Sequence record: PZ583738.1
DNA length: 64,000 nucleotides
From: a phage
Reading direction: 5' to 3' (one strand)
Position 1 is the stretch's first letter; each line of letters begins with the position of its first letter. The notes under the pieces are model-generated. The model was given only the letters and a program-made list of their open reading frames with translations, was not told the origin of the DNA and did no database searches. Shown in pieces: positions 475 to 7,080 of the stretch. Position numbers and translations under genes: made by a program.

Positions 475-502
475 GATGATTCCAAGGTAATAAATATATC
501 TA

Positions 503-510
503 TATTTATA
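503..510 (-). promoter_or_regulatory. T4-type late promoter TATAAATA upstream of uvsW
   Basis: Reverse complement of tatttata, about 30 nt upstream of uvsW ATG. Confidence 0.45.
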
Positions 511-528
511 CACTAACCGAGGTTCATC

Positions 529-1194
529 ATGATTGACAAGAACTACATTGAGGAAATTCGTGTCCTCGAGAAAAAAGAAGCCAAAGAAAAATTAGCCGAA
601 TATGCAGCATCACTTGGTGTTGATGTTAAGAAAACAAAAACCTTTGATAATATGTTGGCTGACCTGGAAGCAGGACTTAAAGCATTTGCTGACATGCCTA
701 TGCCTGATGATAATGAAGGCCTGAGCATCACTGACCTTATCGATGCCGATGATGAATTGTCAGGTGCTAAATTTGATGGCGATGAGTCAGCTAAAGAAGA
801 AGCTAAACTCTTATTTGATGCTCCAACCGAAGCAAAGGTTGAAGTTGTTGAAATCGAAGAACCAGTTGTTGTGGTTGAAGAAGATGTTCCTTTTGTCGAA
901 GAAAAGTTCGAAGCTGCTGTTGCTAAGGTTATCGAATCTGAAAAACCTGTATTTGCTCTGCCAAAAAACTTTAGTCCAAATCTTATGCTTATTGGTAAGA
1001 ACCCTGGATTCTGTACTGTTCCATGGTGGATTTATCAGTGGATTGCCGAGACTCCAGATTGGAAAGAACGTCCAACTGCTTTCCCACATCCCACCGCACA
1101 CCAAACTCTATTCAGTTTGATTTATTACATCAATCGTAATGGGTCTGTTCTAGTACGAGAAACTCGTAACTCATCTTTTGTCACTTTAAAATAA
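529..1194 (+). CDS. acidic protein, positional equivalent of T4 inh (prohead protease inhibitor); identity uncertain
   Basis: 221 aa ORF between uvsW and hoc as inh is in T4; acidic E/V-rich middle; no motif recognised. Confidence 0.4.
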   Translation: MIDKNYIEEIRVLEKKEAKEKLAEYAASLGVDVKKTKTFDNMLADLEAGLKAFADMPMPDDNEGLSITDLIDADDELSGAKFDGDESAKEEAKLLFDAPTEAKVEVVEIEEPVVVVEEDVPFVEEKFEAAVAKVIESEKPVFALPKNFSPNLMLIGKNPGFCTVPWWIYQWIAETPDWKERPTAFPHPTAHQTLFSLIYYINRNGSVLVRETRNSSFVTLK

Positions 1195-1203
1195 GGGTTT
1201 ATT

Positions 1204-2052
1204 ATGGCTTATACCGTAACTATTGCTCCTTTGGCGGCTACGGCCGTTATTGGAGCAACAACCAATTTCACTGCGACCGGTTCCGGTGCTGCAGCTGAAG
1301 GTACCGAATCATTTGTCTGGACCGTTGATGGCGTTCCTCAATCTTCTGTGACTGCTGCAATGGATTATGTTGCTGTTGGTCCAGCAGGCAGTAAGACTAT
1401 TAAAGTTGTTGCAACAACTACACCAGCGGACGGCGAACCAGAAACAGCTGAAGCCGAAACAACTTTAACTATCCAGAATAAAACAATGTCTGGTGTTTCT
1501 GTGACATTAACCCCAGAATCAATTAATGTTCCGGAAGACACCCTAGCTTCATTTAAAGCAGATGTAGTTGGCGCACCGAGTGGAGCTACTTTTGCCTATT
1601 CATGGAAGAAAGACGGTTCTCCTGTAGTTGGCACCACGGATACTCTAGCAATCGATACAAGCACCGAAGGTTCCCAGGTAATTGAAGTTTCTGTTGTTGT
1701 ATCTGCGACTGATTATAACCCTGTAACCGTTACAAAAACTGGTAATGTAACAGTCACGGCTAAAGTAGCTCCTGAACCAGAGGGCGAACTACCTTACGTT
1801 CATCCGCTGCCAGTTCGTAATTCAGCTTATATCTGGTGTGGTTGGTGGGTTATGGACGAAATTCAGAAAATGACTCTTGCTGGGCAAGACTGGAAAACTG
1901 ATGCTCCAGATAGCCCGTATTATTTGCACCGATATACACTTCAAAAAATGATTACCGACTATCCAGAGGTTGATGTACAGGAATCTCGTAATGGTCGAAT
2001 TATTCATCGCACCGCTTTAGAAGCTGGTATTATATACGATTACGTTTATTAA
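1204..2052 (+). CDS. hoc: Hoc-like outer capsid decoration protein (short form, fewer Ig-like domains)
   Basis: 282 aa; Ig-like repeats (TIKVVATTT..., SQVIEVS) and C-terminal capsid-binding region LPYVHPLP...YIWCGWWVMDEIQKMT...YYLHRYTLQKM near-identical to recalled T4 Hoc C-terminus. Confidence 0.85.
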   Translation: MAYTVTIAPLAATAVIGATTNFTATGSGAAAEGTESFVWTVDGVPQSSVTAAMDYVAVGPAGSKTIKVVATTTPADGEPETAEAETTLTIQNKTMSGVSVTLTPESINVPEDTLASFKADVVGAPSGATFAYSWKKDGSPVVGTTDTLAIDTSTEGSQVIEVSVVVSATDYNPVTVTKTGNVTVTAKVAPEPEGELPYVHPLPVRNSAYIWCGWWVMDEIQKMTLAGQDWKTDAPDSPYYLHRYTLQKMITDYPEVDVQESRNGRIIHRTALEAGIIYDYVY

Positions 2053-2056
2053 TTAA

Positions 2057-2085
2057 AAAGGGACCTTCGGGTCCCTTTGTTTTTA
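2057..2085 (+). terminator. intrinsic terminator after hoc
   Basis: agggaccttcgggtccct hairpin followed by T-run. Confidence 0.6.
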
Positions 2086-2168
2086 TGGTACTGTACAAAC
2101 GTCGCCTGGCATAAAAACCCTGTTTACAAGTTAAAAATTCCATGTTAAGATAGCTTCACTAACTCAAC

Positions 2169-2763: not shown

Positions 2764-3771
2764 ATGTTTAAGAAATACAACAGCCTTGAAAATCACTATA
2801 ACAACAAGTTCATTGAAAAGATTCGCCTGCAAGGCTTCACCAGCGGTGAATGGGTAGCTCGCGAGAAGATTCATGGTACCAACTTTTCATTAATCATTGA
2901 ACAAGACAATGTGACATGTGCGAAACGCACTGGACCTATCCTGCCTGCAGAAGATTTCTATGGTTATGAAATTGTATTAAAGAATTATGCTGATTCTATT
3001 AAATCTGTGCAGAAACTTTTGCAGGATATTAATTACCAGGCATACCAGATTTATGGTGAGTTTGCCGGGGCAGGTATCCAGAAGAATGTGGATTACGGTG
3101 ATAAAGATTTTTATGTATTTGATATCCGCGTTACTAAAGAAGATGGTTTTGAATCCGTCCTGACTGACACCTTGATGGAAGCATTCTGTATTATCCATAA
3201 GTTTAAGGTTGCACCGCGCCTGGCTACAGGTAGTTTTGAAGAATTAATTAAGCTCCCTAATGACCTGGATTCTGTTGTCCCTGATTACAATTTTACAGTG
3301 GATAACGCAGGTTTGACTACAGCAAATACCACTGATTTTGATGCAAAGGCGGAAGGTAAAGTATTCACTGCTGAAGGATTTGTATTAAAACCTGATGTTC
3401 CTGCATGGTTACCTAACGGCGAGCGTGTAGCGATTAAATGTAAGAACTCTAAATTCAGTGAAAAGAAAAAGTCTGATAAGCCTATTAAGGCTGCAGTGGT
3501 TCTGAGCCAAAATGATATGGATTTACTGTGGAATTTCACTGATTATGTGACTGTTAACCGTATCAACAATGTTATCAGTAAAATTGGGGAAGTAACACCG
3601 AAGGATTTTGGAAAGGTAATGGGGTTAACAGTCCAAGATATTCTGGAAGAAGCGGGGCGCGAAGGTCTTGAATTATCCCTGACGGAAAATCCTGTTGAAG
3701 TTAAAAAGCAACTCATCACAAATGTAAGAGAAACATTAAGACATGTTTGGATTGCATTAGTTAGTGAATAA
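2764..3771 (+). CDS. rnlB: RNA ligase 2 (Rnl2 family)
   Basis: 335 aa; N-terminus [13 protein letters not shown]...[15 protein letters not shown] with nucleotidyltransferase motif I lysine (KIHG); matches recalled T4 Rnl2 along its length. Confidence 0.9.
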
Positions 3772-3776
3772 AAATA

Positions 3777-3800
3777 AAGGGACCCGAAGGTCCCTTTTTA
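3777..3800. terminator. bidirectional terminator between rnlB and gene 24
   Basis: aagggacccgaaggtccctt hairpin flanked by A-run and T-run. Confidence 0.6.
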
Positions 3801-5078
3801 ATTTATTTCAGTCAGAACTTTAGGAAGTTTCACACCAAGCAGTACAGACATATCTGAACGTCCTGCCATCAAATCCATATTTGTTGCATCAATAATACGA
3901 GCTTGTTTATCATCAGCAGTCACTGTATAAGGGTTAGCTGCTAACGCATAACGAACCATTAATGCAATAGACGGCTGCAAACTTTCTGGGTCAACGACAA
4001 CTTTGAACGAACCAACATGTTCAGGGTCTTCCAGGTCAAGACCTTCGGTATAAGGTGCATAAAACAGTGAACCCACCATCTCTTTCCCACCGAAATCTTC
4101 TTTAACACCAACAGTCACATAATCAAATGGAGTGTTCGTATCACAATAAAGCGGTAGACCATTATCCAAGAAACCATACGCATTATCGGAGAGATATTTC
4201 TCATCTTGTGGACGATGCTTCAACCAACCGGAACCAGCCAAAACTGCAGCTACACGCGTAGAAGCAACAACGTATGTTGCGGTGTAAGAAGTTGCCCGCT
4301 GAATATGGGAGACCATCTCACACATGATTTCGTACAACTTGCGTGAAGCTTCCGGAGAGTTAGTATAAGACAGGTCAATCAGGCCATCATCACAGAGCCC
4401 AGCAACTTTATAACGCTTGGAAACTGTTACCAGGGATTGCAGGATATCTTTGTTAATTTCATCAGCCATTTCGGTAGCTAACAGGTCTTCCAGGAAGTTT
4501 GGAGCGTCAAAACCGTTTGCTTCCAGGTCCTGGGCCAGTTCCACTGTAACAGTGCTTTTCAGCTTACGAGATTTAACCGGAGCATTCCATTTGTTAACCA
4601 AAAATTTAGCTTCGGCAATTTCGACTTCCTGTGGTCCTTCAAAACGTTCGGTGATTGCAGCTTCGGACATAATACGGATGGTCAATTTAACCATCGCTTC
4701 TTGAAGCTGGTCATACTCATCGCCCGTTGCTCCAGCAAATGGAGTTGCTACCAGCGCTTTATAAACTACATTTTCAAACTGGAACAAATCGTCTTTAGCA
4801 TAAACTGCGCCAGCAACAAAAACCGGAATGGTCGCACGGTCTTTTGCTGATACTGCACCAGAATAGGTTGCACCAGTCTGGAAAGATAATTCATCTTGCT
4901 GAGTCAGGTATTTAAGACCGTATAATGCCGCCAGTGGCTGGGATGTGCGCTGTTGTGCTACTAAATCGGTGTAAATCAGTTTAGTCGTAGCTCTGGTTAA
5001 AGCTACTAGATTCGGTCGACCAATCGAAGAACTTGTGGTCGTGGTCGACTCTTTTAAGAGTTCGTTAATTTTAGCCAT
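3798..5078 (-). CDS. 24: head vertex protein gp24
   Basis: 426 aa, gp23-like fold signature (FYAPYTEGLD..., MVRYALAANPYT), directly downstream of gene 23 as in T4. Confidence 0.9.
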   Translation of the reverse strand: MAKINELLKESTTTTSSSIGRPNLVALTRATTKLIYTDLVAQQRTSQPLAALYGLKYLTQQDELSFQTGATYSGAVSAKDRATIPVFVAGAVYAKDDLFQFENVVYKALVATPFAGATGDEYDQLQEAMVKLTIRIMSEAAITERFEGPQEVEIAEAKFLVNKWNAPVKSRKLKSTVTVELAQDLEANGFDAPNFLEDLLATEMADEINKDILQSLVTVSKRYKVAGLCDDGLIDLSYTNSPEASRKLYEIMCEMVSHIQRATSYTATYVVASTRVAAVLAGSGWLKHRPQDEKYLSDNAYGFLDNGLPLYCDTNTPFDYVTVGVKEDFGGKEMVGSLFYAPYTEGLDLEDPEHVGSFKVVVDPESLQPSIALMVRYALAANPYTVTADDKQARIIDATNMDLMAGRSDMSVLLGVKLPKVLTEIN

Positions 5079-5103
5079 TGCTATTTCCTTTTGTGATATA
5101 CTT

Positions 5104-5111
5104 TATTTATA
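5104..5111 (-). promoter_or_regulatory. late promoter TATAAATA upstream of gene 24
   Basis: Exact motif about 26 nt upstream of gene 24 start. Confidence 0.5.
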
Positions 5112-5117
5112 AAAGTT

Positions 5118-5162
5118 GTTTACAACCAGATTAAGATAAGACATAATGATTCCATACTGAGT
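5118..5162 (+). promoter_or_regulatory. early promoter (-35 GTTTAC, 18 bp spacer, -10 CATAAT) plus conserved leader cataatgattccatactgag
   Basis: Sigma70-like hexamers; leader repeated at about 45977, 46866 and 47392. Confidence 0.5.
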
Positions 5163-5188
5163 TAACAAACAAAACCTGGAGTTTAAAA

Positions 5189-5470
5189 ATGAACAAAGCA
5201 ACTTTCCTTCTGAACACCTTTAAAAATCTGGAAATTGAAGTTATTGCCTTGGTCAACAAATACCCAAATGGTGTTAATGGTAATGCTCTGAACAAACTAG
5301 TTAAAAAATATGAAAACTTAGCATATGACACTGATTTCTGGTGGAATGGTAATTATTCTACTCACACTAAAGATAAAAATGGTAACTGGTTGAAACTTCA
5401 AGAAAACAATGTTAACTTCAGAGACCTCATCAAGCGCCGGGTAGAAGTTCATTTAAATGGTATGGTATGA
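5189..5470 (+). CDS. hypothetical protein (early, between genes 23 and 24)
   Basis: 93 aa ORF preceded by GTTTAC -35 / CATAAT -10 early-type promoter and conserved leader cataatgattccatactgag, RBS GGAG. Confidence 0.55.
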   Translation: MNKATFLLNTFKNLEIEVIALVNKYPNGVNGNALNKLVKKYENLAYDTDFWWNGNYSTHTKDKNGNWLKLQENNVNFRDLIKRRVEVHLNGMV

Positions 5471-5477
5471 AAACAAG

Positions 5478-5505
5478 AAAGGGACCTCAAGGGTCCCTTT
5501 TTATT
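5478..5505. terminator. bidirectional terminator between ORF 5189-5470 and gene 23
   Basis: aagggacctcaagggtccctt hairpin with flanking A/T runs. Confidence 0.55.
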
Positions 5506-5520
5506 TAACTTAATCTAGGA

Positions 5521-7080
5521 TTAAATTCCTTTAACATATACGCGGCGGAAGTAACCGTTCAAGCCAAGGCTGTTAACGATGTCCGGCATGCCGTTCTGAA
5601 TGCGCTTGGTCGGAGCCTGAGCAGCAGGGTCAGCAAACGGGTTGATACCGATACCGTAACGGGTTTTGAAGCCCATAACCGGCTGGAAGTTTTTCGGGTC
5701 AGAACCACGCAGCGGGGTCAGTGCAACATATGGTGCGTAGTAGATACCAGCATCCATTTCGTTAGCGCCTTTGTAACCGATGGTGAAGTAATCTGCACGA
5801 GCATACTGGTCGATATAGACACGGTATTTGCCACCCAGAACACCAGCGAACACAGCTTTAGTGGTGTCAACGTTGAAACCTTTACCCAGACCCTGAGCAG
5901 CATAACTAACAGAAGTATCAACAGCAGCCAGCACGTTAACTACGTTACGGGAAGCGATGATGAAGTTACCTGCACCACGACCGGTCTGACGAGCGATTTC
6001 AGCGGCTTCTTTATCAATCTGGAACAGTAAAGCTTTGAAGCTTTCACCAGCCCAACGAGCACCACGGATATCAATTGGGTCCTGGAAGTCAAACACACCA
6101 GCTTTAGCGCCAACGGTGTTGGTCATACCAGATTTACCAACCTGTGCGGAGTAGTTAATCCAATCGATAACTTCGCGGTTGATTTCCAGCATAATTTCGG
6201 TAGCCAGAATACCACTCAATTCGGCATCAGCATCCATACCGTGAACAGCGCGGAGGTCCTGTGCCAGTTCGATGGAGTAGCTTGCTTTCAGCTGACGGGA
6301 TTTAGCTTCGATAACTTGTTTGTCGATGCGGAAGCCCATTTCGTTCCACGGGTTATCAGAGGAACCGTTAAAACCTTCTTGCAGTTCGGCGATGGAGGTA
6401 GCCATACCTTCAGCCAGTTCAGCCAGCTGACCAGCTTCCAACAGAGCGGTTACAGCGGCATCCAGTTTAGCAGCATCAGTAGCAGCAGCATCAACAGTTA
6501 CAGCTTCAACAGCCTGGAAGTGTGCGGAACCTGTTGCTTCAAAGAAGTGAGAATAAATTTTACCAACTTCCAGAACTTTGCTTGCAGCCAGTGCTTCAAA
6601 AGTCTTAGCAGCGCCCTGACCAGAGAACATAGCGTTCGGAGCATACATCGGATGGAAAGCTTCTTTAGCACCAGCAGCGACAGGGTCTTTACCGTAAACT
6701 GCACGCAGGGCAAATACCTGGCCAGTCGGGTTGTTCAGAGGCTGTACGCCGCAAATATCAAACGCAATCAGATGCGGGATAGCACGACGAACCATACCCA
6801 TAACTGCCGGCCCAATCTGAGTTACTGCACCAGAGGTCTGGCCGGCAGCAATATTGGTAGCATCATAACCATGGTCACCACCGATTTCAGCTTCGGTCAG
6901 GAAAGAACCAAATGCTTCAGAGATTTTTTCGTCACGGTATTCAGGAGCGGTCAGAATATCTTGTTCCTGGTTTTCAAAGATTTTAGCGATGATAGCTTGT
7001 TTAGAAGCACCAACGATTTCAGGAAGAGCTTCGTTTTCCAGCAGAGCGGACCATTTTTGAACTAATGCATTCTTTTTCAT
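5521..7080 (-). CDS. 23: major capsid protein gp23
   Basis: 519 aa; long stretches identical to recalled T4 gp23 (AIIAKIFENQE, GSFLTEAEIGGDHGY, GFKTRYGIGINPFA, FRRVYVKGI). Confidence 0.95.
   Translation of the reverse strand: MKKNALVQKWSALLENEALPEIVGASKQAIIAKIFENQEQDILTAPEYRDEKISEAFGSFLTEAEIGGDHGYDATNIAAGQTSGAVTQIGPAVMGMVRRAIPHLIAFDICGVQPLNNPTGQVFALRAVYGKDPVAAGAKEAFHPMYAPNAMFSGQGAAKTFEALAASKVLEVGKIYSHFFEATGSAHFQAVEAVTVDAAATDAAKLDAAVTALLEAGQLAELAEGMATSIAELQEGFNGSSDNPWNEMGFRIDKQVIEAKSRQLKASYSIELAQDLRAVHGMDADAELSGILATEIMLEINREVIDWINYSAQVGKSGMTNTVGAKAGVFDFQDPIDIRGARWAGESFKALLFQIDKEAAEIARQTGRGAGNFIIASRNVVNVLAAVDTSVSYAAQGLGKGFNVDTTKAVFAGVLGGKYRVYIDQYARADYFTIGYKGANEMDAGIYYAPYVALTPLRGSDPKNFQPVMGFKTRYGIGINPFADPAAQAPTKRIQNGMPDIVNSLGLNGYFRRVYVKGI

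Follow-up and report, generated by a model that had tools for sequence, protein, structure and literature searches.

The window analysed here is a stretch of 64,000 nucleotides of phage DNA (sequence record PZ583738.1), and it carries the gene hoc 9 nt beyond the end of inh, which codes for the inhibitor of the prohead protease (Table 1). A Shine-Dalgarno-like AAGGG box is located 8 nt 5' of the hoc start, and inh and hoc are probably co-transcribed. The gene neighbourhood of T4 hoc has been kept at this locus, with inh on the 5' side and homologues of T4 24.3, 24.2, rnlB, and gene 24 on the 3' side. In this 3' region, the homologue of T4 gene 24.2 (87 aa, 2369-2632) is found in Gaprivervirus relatives and has no match in the AnYang and JS98 loci, and the 24.2 site represents a small indel hotspot just 3' of hoc. 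Further along, gene 24 and gene 23, both on the minus strand, are separated by a 442-bp spacer (5079-5520) in which the plus strand holds an ORF of 93 aa (5189..5470); at this position T4 has the homing endonuclease gene segD.

Table 1. Features of the hoc locus and of the gene for the Hoc binding partner, in window coordinates.
Feature	Coordinates	Strand	Basis or remark
Conserved AATAAATATATCTATATTTATAC element between divergent uvsW (-) and inh (+)	489..511	.	Identical in T4 upstream of inh
inh (inhibitor of prohead protease)	529..1194	+	Annotation of DK-13, VR20, and T4
hoc	1204..2052	+	Intact ATG-to-TAA ORF, 282 codons plus TAA
Ig-like module A, aa 1-92	1204..1479	+	Orthologue of T4 Hoc domain 1
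Linker N-K-T-M (AATAAAACAATG), junction where module B sits in 377-aa alleles	1477..1488	+	DNA alignments with P479, VR20, and metagenomic contig L009
Ig-like module C, aa 93-186	1480..1761	+	Orthologue of T4 Hoc domain 3
C-terminal alpha/beta capsid-binding domain (Ct), aa 187-282	1762..2049	+	81/95 identical to T4
Intrinsic-terminator-like hairpin and T-run directly 3' of the hoc stop	2057..2088	+	9-bp stem with 5 GC pairs, then GTTTTTATGG
Gene 23 (major capsid protein, Hoc binding partner)	5521..7080	-	T4 gp23 alignment

The product of this gene is clearly Hoc, the head decoration protein of the T4 type, as judged by a sequence similarity that covers its full length. It was matched to PHROG 1149 ("Hoc-like head decoration") with E=3.4e-101 in a profile search, and to T4 Hoc (PDB 5vf3_Z, 376 aa) with E=1.1e-122 by phmmer; the homologous gene has also been annotated as hoc in the records of DK-13, SP18, and JS98. 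Over a length of 4 kb, the window has 99.8% identity with Escherichia phage DK-13, a Gaprivervirus, whose Hoc differs in one residue (G227E), and the presence of an annotated hoc in a phage so similar indicates that this is not a chance ORF. Since no second Hoc-like gene was found in the window and the DK-13 genome has one matching place only, the gene codes for the only Hoc of the phage. The protein is acidic, with a pI of 4.4 and a net charge of about -17.

Several elements around inh and hoc might serve in their transcription. The hairpin proper of the terminator-like structure is a strong one and spans 2057-2078, and both hairpin and T-run are identical in P479 and VR20. On the 5' side, the AATAAATATATCTATATTTATAC element is a candidate, from its sequence, for a pair of back-to-back late promoters, with AATAAATA on the plus strand directed toward inh-hoc and TATAAATA on the minus strand (503-510) directed toward uvsW. 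The exact T4 late promoter TATAAATA was not found on the plus strand upstream of inh-hoc; the form present there, AATAAATA at 489-496, has one mismatch and is conserved with T4. One-mismatch matches are not enriched across the window (121 found vs. 124 expected), so that a promoter role of AATAAATA may be proposed only tentatively. As for the exact octamer, the whole window contains 20 copies where 5.2 would be expected. The first 15, which extend to 26.5 kb, are without exception on the minus strand and the last five, from 36.4 kb onward, on the plus strand, and this change of strand shows that late transcription reverses its direction along the window.

The T4 Hoc consists of three Ig-like domains followed by a non-Ig C-terminal domain that binds the capsid (PMC10385173). 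In order to compare architectures, the proteins were cut at the recurring linker [N/K]-K-T-[M/I/Q] and the resulting modules were aligned by blastp. The first Ig-like module of the window Hoc was 54% identical to T4 Ig1 (e=4e-23) and 99% identical to VR20 Ig1, and the second was 64% identical to T4 Ig3 (e=8e-37) vs. 37% to T4 Ig2. The C-terminal segment, to which the flexible linker KVAPEPEGELP belongs, was 86% identical to that of T4 by blastp. The same correspondence was found with HMMER, by which residues 1 to about 95 of the window Hoc matched T4 residues 1 to about 95, and residues 84-280 matched T4 180-375. Moreover, MAFFT alignments with P479, VR20, and T4 showed one contiguous gap of 95 residues in the window Hoc, and in the pairwise alignment 95 T4 residues, located between positions 96 and 193, are without a partner. 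From this module-by-module comparison, the architecture is A-C-Ct and lacks module B, which stands where T4 has its domain 2 (~96-190). The window Hoc is thus a protein of two Ig-like domains plus the C-terminal domain, instead of the canonical three of T4. The initial annotation had proposed a Hoc of 282 aa, against about 376 aa in T4, with an almost unchanged capsid-binding region and two or three Ig-like domains in place of four. Both lengths hold (the T4 Hoc of NC_000866.4 has 376 aa, i.e., 94 more than the 282 codons of the window ORF), as does the near identity of the C-terminal region; the reduction in Ig-like domains also stands, one module being absent, and what had to be corrected was the baseline, because T4 has three such domains and the comparison is of two with three.

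The domain count agrees with structure prediction. Domain parsing with Pfam, which had been suggested as a check, found Ig matches, although they were below threshold (I-set 0.014 and Ig_3 0.019, residues 99-184), and for this reason the count was taken from the alignment with T4 and congeners together with an AlphaFold2 model. The model, built from a 35-sequence alignment, has a mean pLDDT of 86.8 and predicts a beta-sandwich at residues 4-91 (module A, block pLDDT 86-96), another at residues 99-185 (module C, 87-97), a low-confidence linker at about 186-205, and then an alpha/beta domain at 209-273. When searched against the PDB with Foldseek, it matched tandem-Ig proteins (NCAM Ig1-2 and DSCAM) and the Ig domains of RB49 Hoc (3shs) with a probability of 1.00. 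The predicted fold is therefore in agreement with two N-terminal Ig-like domains joined by a short linker.

The anchor of the protein has been conserved together with its target on the capsid. The T4 Hoc residues that contact gp23* have been listed (PMC10385173), and 16 of the 18 contact or conserved-loop positions that were mapped are identical in the window Hoc. They include Y198, H200, R205, Y209, W211, W214, W215, Q259, and E260-G264 in window numbering (Y293, H295, R300, Y304, W306, W309, W310, Q354, and the E355-G359 loop in T4), so that the conserved Tyr293, His295, Trp309, and Trp310 as well as the E-S-R-N-G loop are all present. The two changed residues, H299 to V204 and Y360 to R265, are common to all the Gaprivervirus and Dhakavirus alleles examined, long and short. 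As regards the partner, the window gp23 has 438 identical positions over 522 alignment columns with T4 gp23, and its Hoc-binding segment GAKAGVFDFQDPIDIRGAR (T4 Gly326-Arg344) is identical in 18 of 19 residues, with S327A as the sole difference and with Asp336 and Pro337 kept. Since the contact residues are conserved on both partners, docking at the centres of the gp23 hexamers is expected as in T4, with presumably one Hoc copy at the centre of each hexamer. The two acidic Ig modules would then project outward as a fibre one module shorter than that of T4, of perhaps 135 Å vs. the 180 Å reported for T4 if each domain contributes about 45 Å. Apart from this, V204 and R265 in Hoc and S327A in gp23 may reflect a co-adaptation of anchor and binding site. 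In module C, the conserved D151 is the counterpart of T4 D246, a residue for which Fu et al. (2024; PMC11853027) cite a mucus-adaptive mutation.

The short form is widespread. By tblastn, the 282-aa Hoc with two Ig-like domains was found in 38 phage records, representing about 29 distinct phages, at 93% identity or more; among the carriers are JS98 and AnYang of Dhakavirus, SP18 of Gaprivervirus, and also Bp7, MX01, WG01, QL01, RZ, and CJ20. The 377-aa Hoc with three Ig-like domains was found in 15 records (14 distinct phages). Among the best 120 clusters of a large protein database, the search of which found about 900 hoc alleles, 11 have 282 aa, 24 have 377 aa, and 85 have 467-472 aa (four Ig-like domains); in some clusters of the 282-aa form, as many as 34 metagenomic sequences are grouped together. 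The number of domains varies even within one series of E. coli phages, given that JS98 has two and JS10 has four. In pairwise comparisons of modules A, C, and Ct with six relatives, dN/dS was 0-0.17 at dS values of 0.05-0.56, which indicates, at the level of the coding sequence, that all three parts are under strong purifying selection and that the gene is functional. The 282-aa allele is hence real but ordinary, having been already deposited, for example, from JS98 and SP18.

The point at which short and long alleles part can be located exactly. With respect to the 377-aa alleles of P479 and VR20, the sole difference in hoc length is a 285-bp in-frame block that corresponds to module B. In the long alleles this block has AAtAAAACaATG (N-K-T-M) on its left side and AAgAAAACtATG (K-K-T-M) on its right side, whereas in the window the left repeat is joined straight to the sequence that follows the right one; the crossover is therefore placed within the ATG that the repeats have in common or directly beside it, at window position 1485-1488. 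In the long allele of contig L009, the insertion follows window position 1485. A junction of this kind is to be expected after the in-frame loss of a module and equally after its gain. Module B would have been deleted in frame by recombination or slippage between imperfect repeats, AA(T/G)AAAAC(A/T)ATG, that code for the N/K-K-T-M linker wherever two modules meet; in the four-Ig Hoc forms, a K-K-T-M/I linker does bound every module. The repeats agree in 10 of 12 positions over the 12-mer, and the exact microhomology at the junction is the ATG alone, 3 nt; because this is so short, the mechanism is a plausible reading and not a proof.

Before the origin of the short form is discussed, it has to be considered whether the protein is really short and really a working one. 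The initial annotation had allowed for a mis-called start, and a truncated ORF would likewise leave a real protein of T4 size. The alignment with T4 Hoc gave no sign of either, because Met1 is aligned with Met1 of T4, P479, and VR20 and the 95 absent residues are internal. Furthermore, congeners with the long allele have the same 54 bases 5' of hoc, and the last base of inh (1194) is only 9 nt upstream, which leaves no space for an N-terminal extension and excludes a mis-called start, so that this explanation has practically no probability left. Hardly any more can be given to an artefact of sequencing or assembly in which tandem Ig-coding repeats were collapsed. It is true that short-read assemblies can collapse tandem repeated modules, but modules A, B, and C of the long alleles have no significant DNA similarity (their best mutual blastn matches are of 13-30 nt, with E>=0.03), and this excludes a collapse; the same 846-nt gene has, besides, been recovered from many metagenome contigs and, beginning with the JS98 record, in the independent sequencing of about 29 phages. 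Alternatively, the short Hoc might be the decaying, non-functional remnant of a non-essential gene, as Hoc is dispensable in the laboratory (PMC10385173). This is very improbable in view of a reading frame that is intact in all hoc alleles, a low dN/dS even where dS reaches 0.56, a deletion exactly in frame at module boundaries, and the confident predicted folding of both remaining Ig modules.

The direction of the change is a more delicate question. An in-frame deletion of module B is the most likely origin of the short form, and the opposite course, in which the two-Ig form would be ancestral and the 377-aa and ~470-aa forms would have arisen by insertion or duplication of modules, is unlikely though by no means negligible. 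Gains certainly occur, since C' in the four-Ig forms has clearly arisen by duplication of C, with 64-77% identity to the second Ig-like module of the window; moreover, VR20 B is nearer to C-type modules (41-46%, including 44% to T4 Ig3) than to T4 Ig2 (32%, e=7e-7). On the other hand, module blastp showed 78-83% conservation of module B, with an unchanged position, in Gaprivervirus (VR20), Dhakavirus (JS10), and Klebsiella phages such as KP185, and T4 likewise has a module there, with the Cys of the LNCEV / IKCVA strand in common. The short alleles lie nested within the long ones, to some of which they are 97-99% identical over the shared columns. Conservation of B in place and this similarity of short to long alleles make the loss of module B the more parsimonious direction, although the low identity of T4 B and VR20 B (32%) makes this polarity less than firm. 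In a neighbour-joining tree of 118 cluster representatives (A, last Ig, and Ct; without bootstrap and with recombination ignored), which leaves the direction of change unpolarised, two-Ig forms are interspersed among three-Ig forms and are not monophyletic; this is compatible either with one deletion spread by recombination or with several independent deletions. The long allele closest to the window is that of a metagenomic contig (L009, Logan SRR27732218, hoc at 2865-3998), whose 377-aa Hoc (P0005) is 99% identical to the window Hoc over the shared columns, a value that no other representative of a 282-aa cluster reaches. However, the two hoc genes differ by about 30 mostly synonymous SNPs, so that they do not make a clean before-and-after pair. 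The identity between this contig and the window drops sharply in gene 24, with 64 differences at window positions 3801-4000.

Taken as a whole, the data are very probably best explained by a functional A-C-Ct Hoc that binds gp23, from which module B was deleted and whose allele has spread. The short allele, present in two genera, would have spread after the deletion, and there are signs of movement at the locus. The window from about 1000 to 2050, comprising the 3' end of inh and hoc, has an identity of 86-100% with AnYang and JS98 of Dhakavirus, whereas sliding identity falls to 58-80% on both flanks; the reverse is seen against the Gaprivervirus congeners, from which hoc differs with a dS of 0.1-0.55 and whose flanking genes are closer, with 97-100% identity. 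The hoc alleles therefore circulate semi-independently of the genome backbone. Pairwise identities among hoc alleles are mosaic, and the alleles apparently pass from one genus to another in the manner of a cassette. A broader proposal would make hoc a cassette locus where modules are lost and gained in frame at linker-coding repeats, so as to produce the two-, three-, and four-Ig forms of nearly identical phages, whole alleles move between genera by recombination, and the number and type of Ig modules are adaptively tuned; each Ig module would be bounded by the same linker-coding repeat, AA(G/T)AAAACNATG. We consider this proposal doubtful in its full extent. If it were true, the loss of module B would re-target or weaken adherence to mucus and to the host surface in the JS98/DK-13 lineage.

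T4-like phages adhere to mucus and to surfaces by means of the Hoc fibre, which is also the display scaffold of nanoparticle vaccines made from T4. How far the fibre reaches and which glycans it recognises should depend on how many Ig modules it has and of which type, and knowing the A-C-Ct make-up of the JS98/DK-13-type Hoc would be useful for choosing therapeutic phages that persist in the gut and for designing display constructs. Ig modules of Hoc mediate mucin binding and their make-up matters (PMC11853027); it is plausible that fewer modules alter the surface display and adhesion of the capsid. A literature search found no paper that spells out the module make-up of the JS98-type Hoc. Nevertheless, current understanding is left unchanged, since the variable number of Ig-like domains in Hoc and the 282-aa allele are already on record. 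In fact, a survey of about 650 Hoc homologues has described a conserved C-terminal anchor combined with one to 10 Ig-like domains, forms with two included (Fokine et al., 2023; PMC10385173).

Comparison with the known systems places the window Hoc among these forms. The T4 Hoc (PDB 5vf3, 8t1x; PMC10385173) belongs to the same family, is also acidic, has most of its gp23-contact residues in common with the window Hoc, and is encoded at the same gene position (uvsW, inh-hoc, 24.3-24.2, rnlB, gene 24); it differs in its 376 aa vs. 282 aa, in the module at domain 2 (~96-190), and at the two positions of H299V and Y360R. The Hoc proteins of DK-13, JS98, SP18, Bp7, MX01, WG01, QL01, and AnYang have the same length and modules as that of the window, with 93.6-99.6% amino acid identity, and the GenBank records of the 282-aa alleles are labelled hoc or head outer capsid protein. 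In the Gaprivervirus phages VR20, P479, TH41, and UPEC01 (377 aa), identity with the window is 91-100% in the modules present in both and 97-100% in the flanking genes, but their Hoc has an additional 95-residue module B between two linkers that is absent from the window. The order of modules is thus A-C-Ct in the window, A-B-C-Ct in T4, VR20, and P479, and A-B-C'-C-Ct in JS10 and the Klebsiella T4-like phages. Another example of reduction is the Hoc of the E. coli T4-like phage PhiPNJ-9 (PQ100635), a natural three-domain variant of about 283 aa in which domain 3 is absent and which binds fucose on MUC2 via domain 2 and mediates adherence to gut mucus (Fu et al., 2024, J Virol; PMC11853027). 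Its module make-up was deduced from the residues named in that paper: P12, G109, A122-G127, A165-Y172, and N180-E-V-S-L-T185 fit T4 domains 1-2 exactly and do not fit the window Hoc, from which an A-B-Ct architecture follows. Both proteins therefore have two Ig-like domains and the C-terminal domain, but PhiPNJ-9 has domains 1 and 2 without domain 3, whereas the window Hoc lacks the MUC2-binding module of PhiPNJ-9 and keeps the one bearing the T4 D246 site. Finally, the same anchor plan with other copy numbers or types of modules is found in Muldoon (10 Ig and two Ig), in PG7 (one Ig), and in JS10 and the Klebsiella phages (four Ig).
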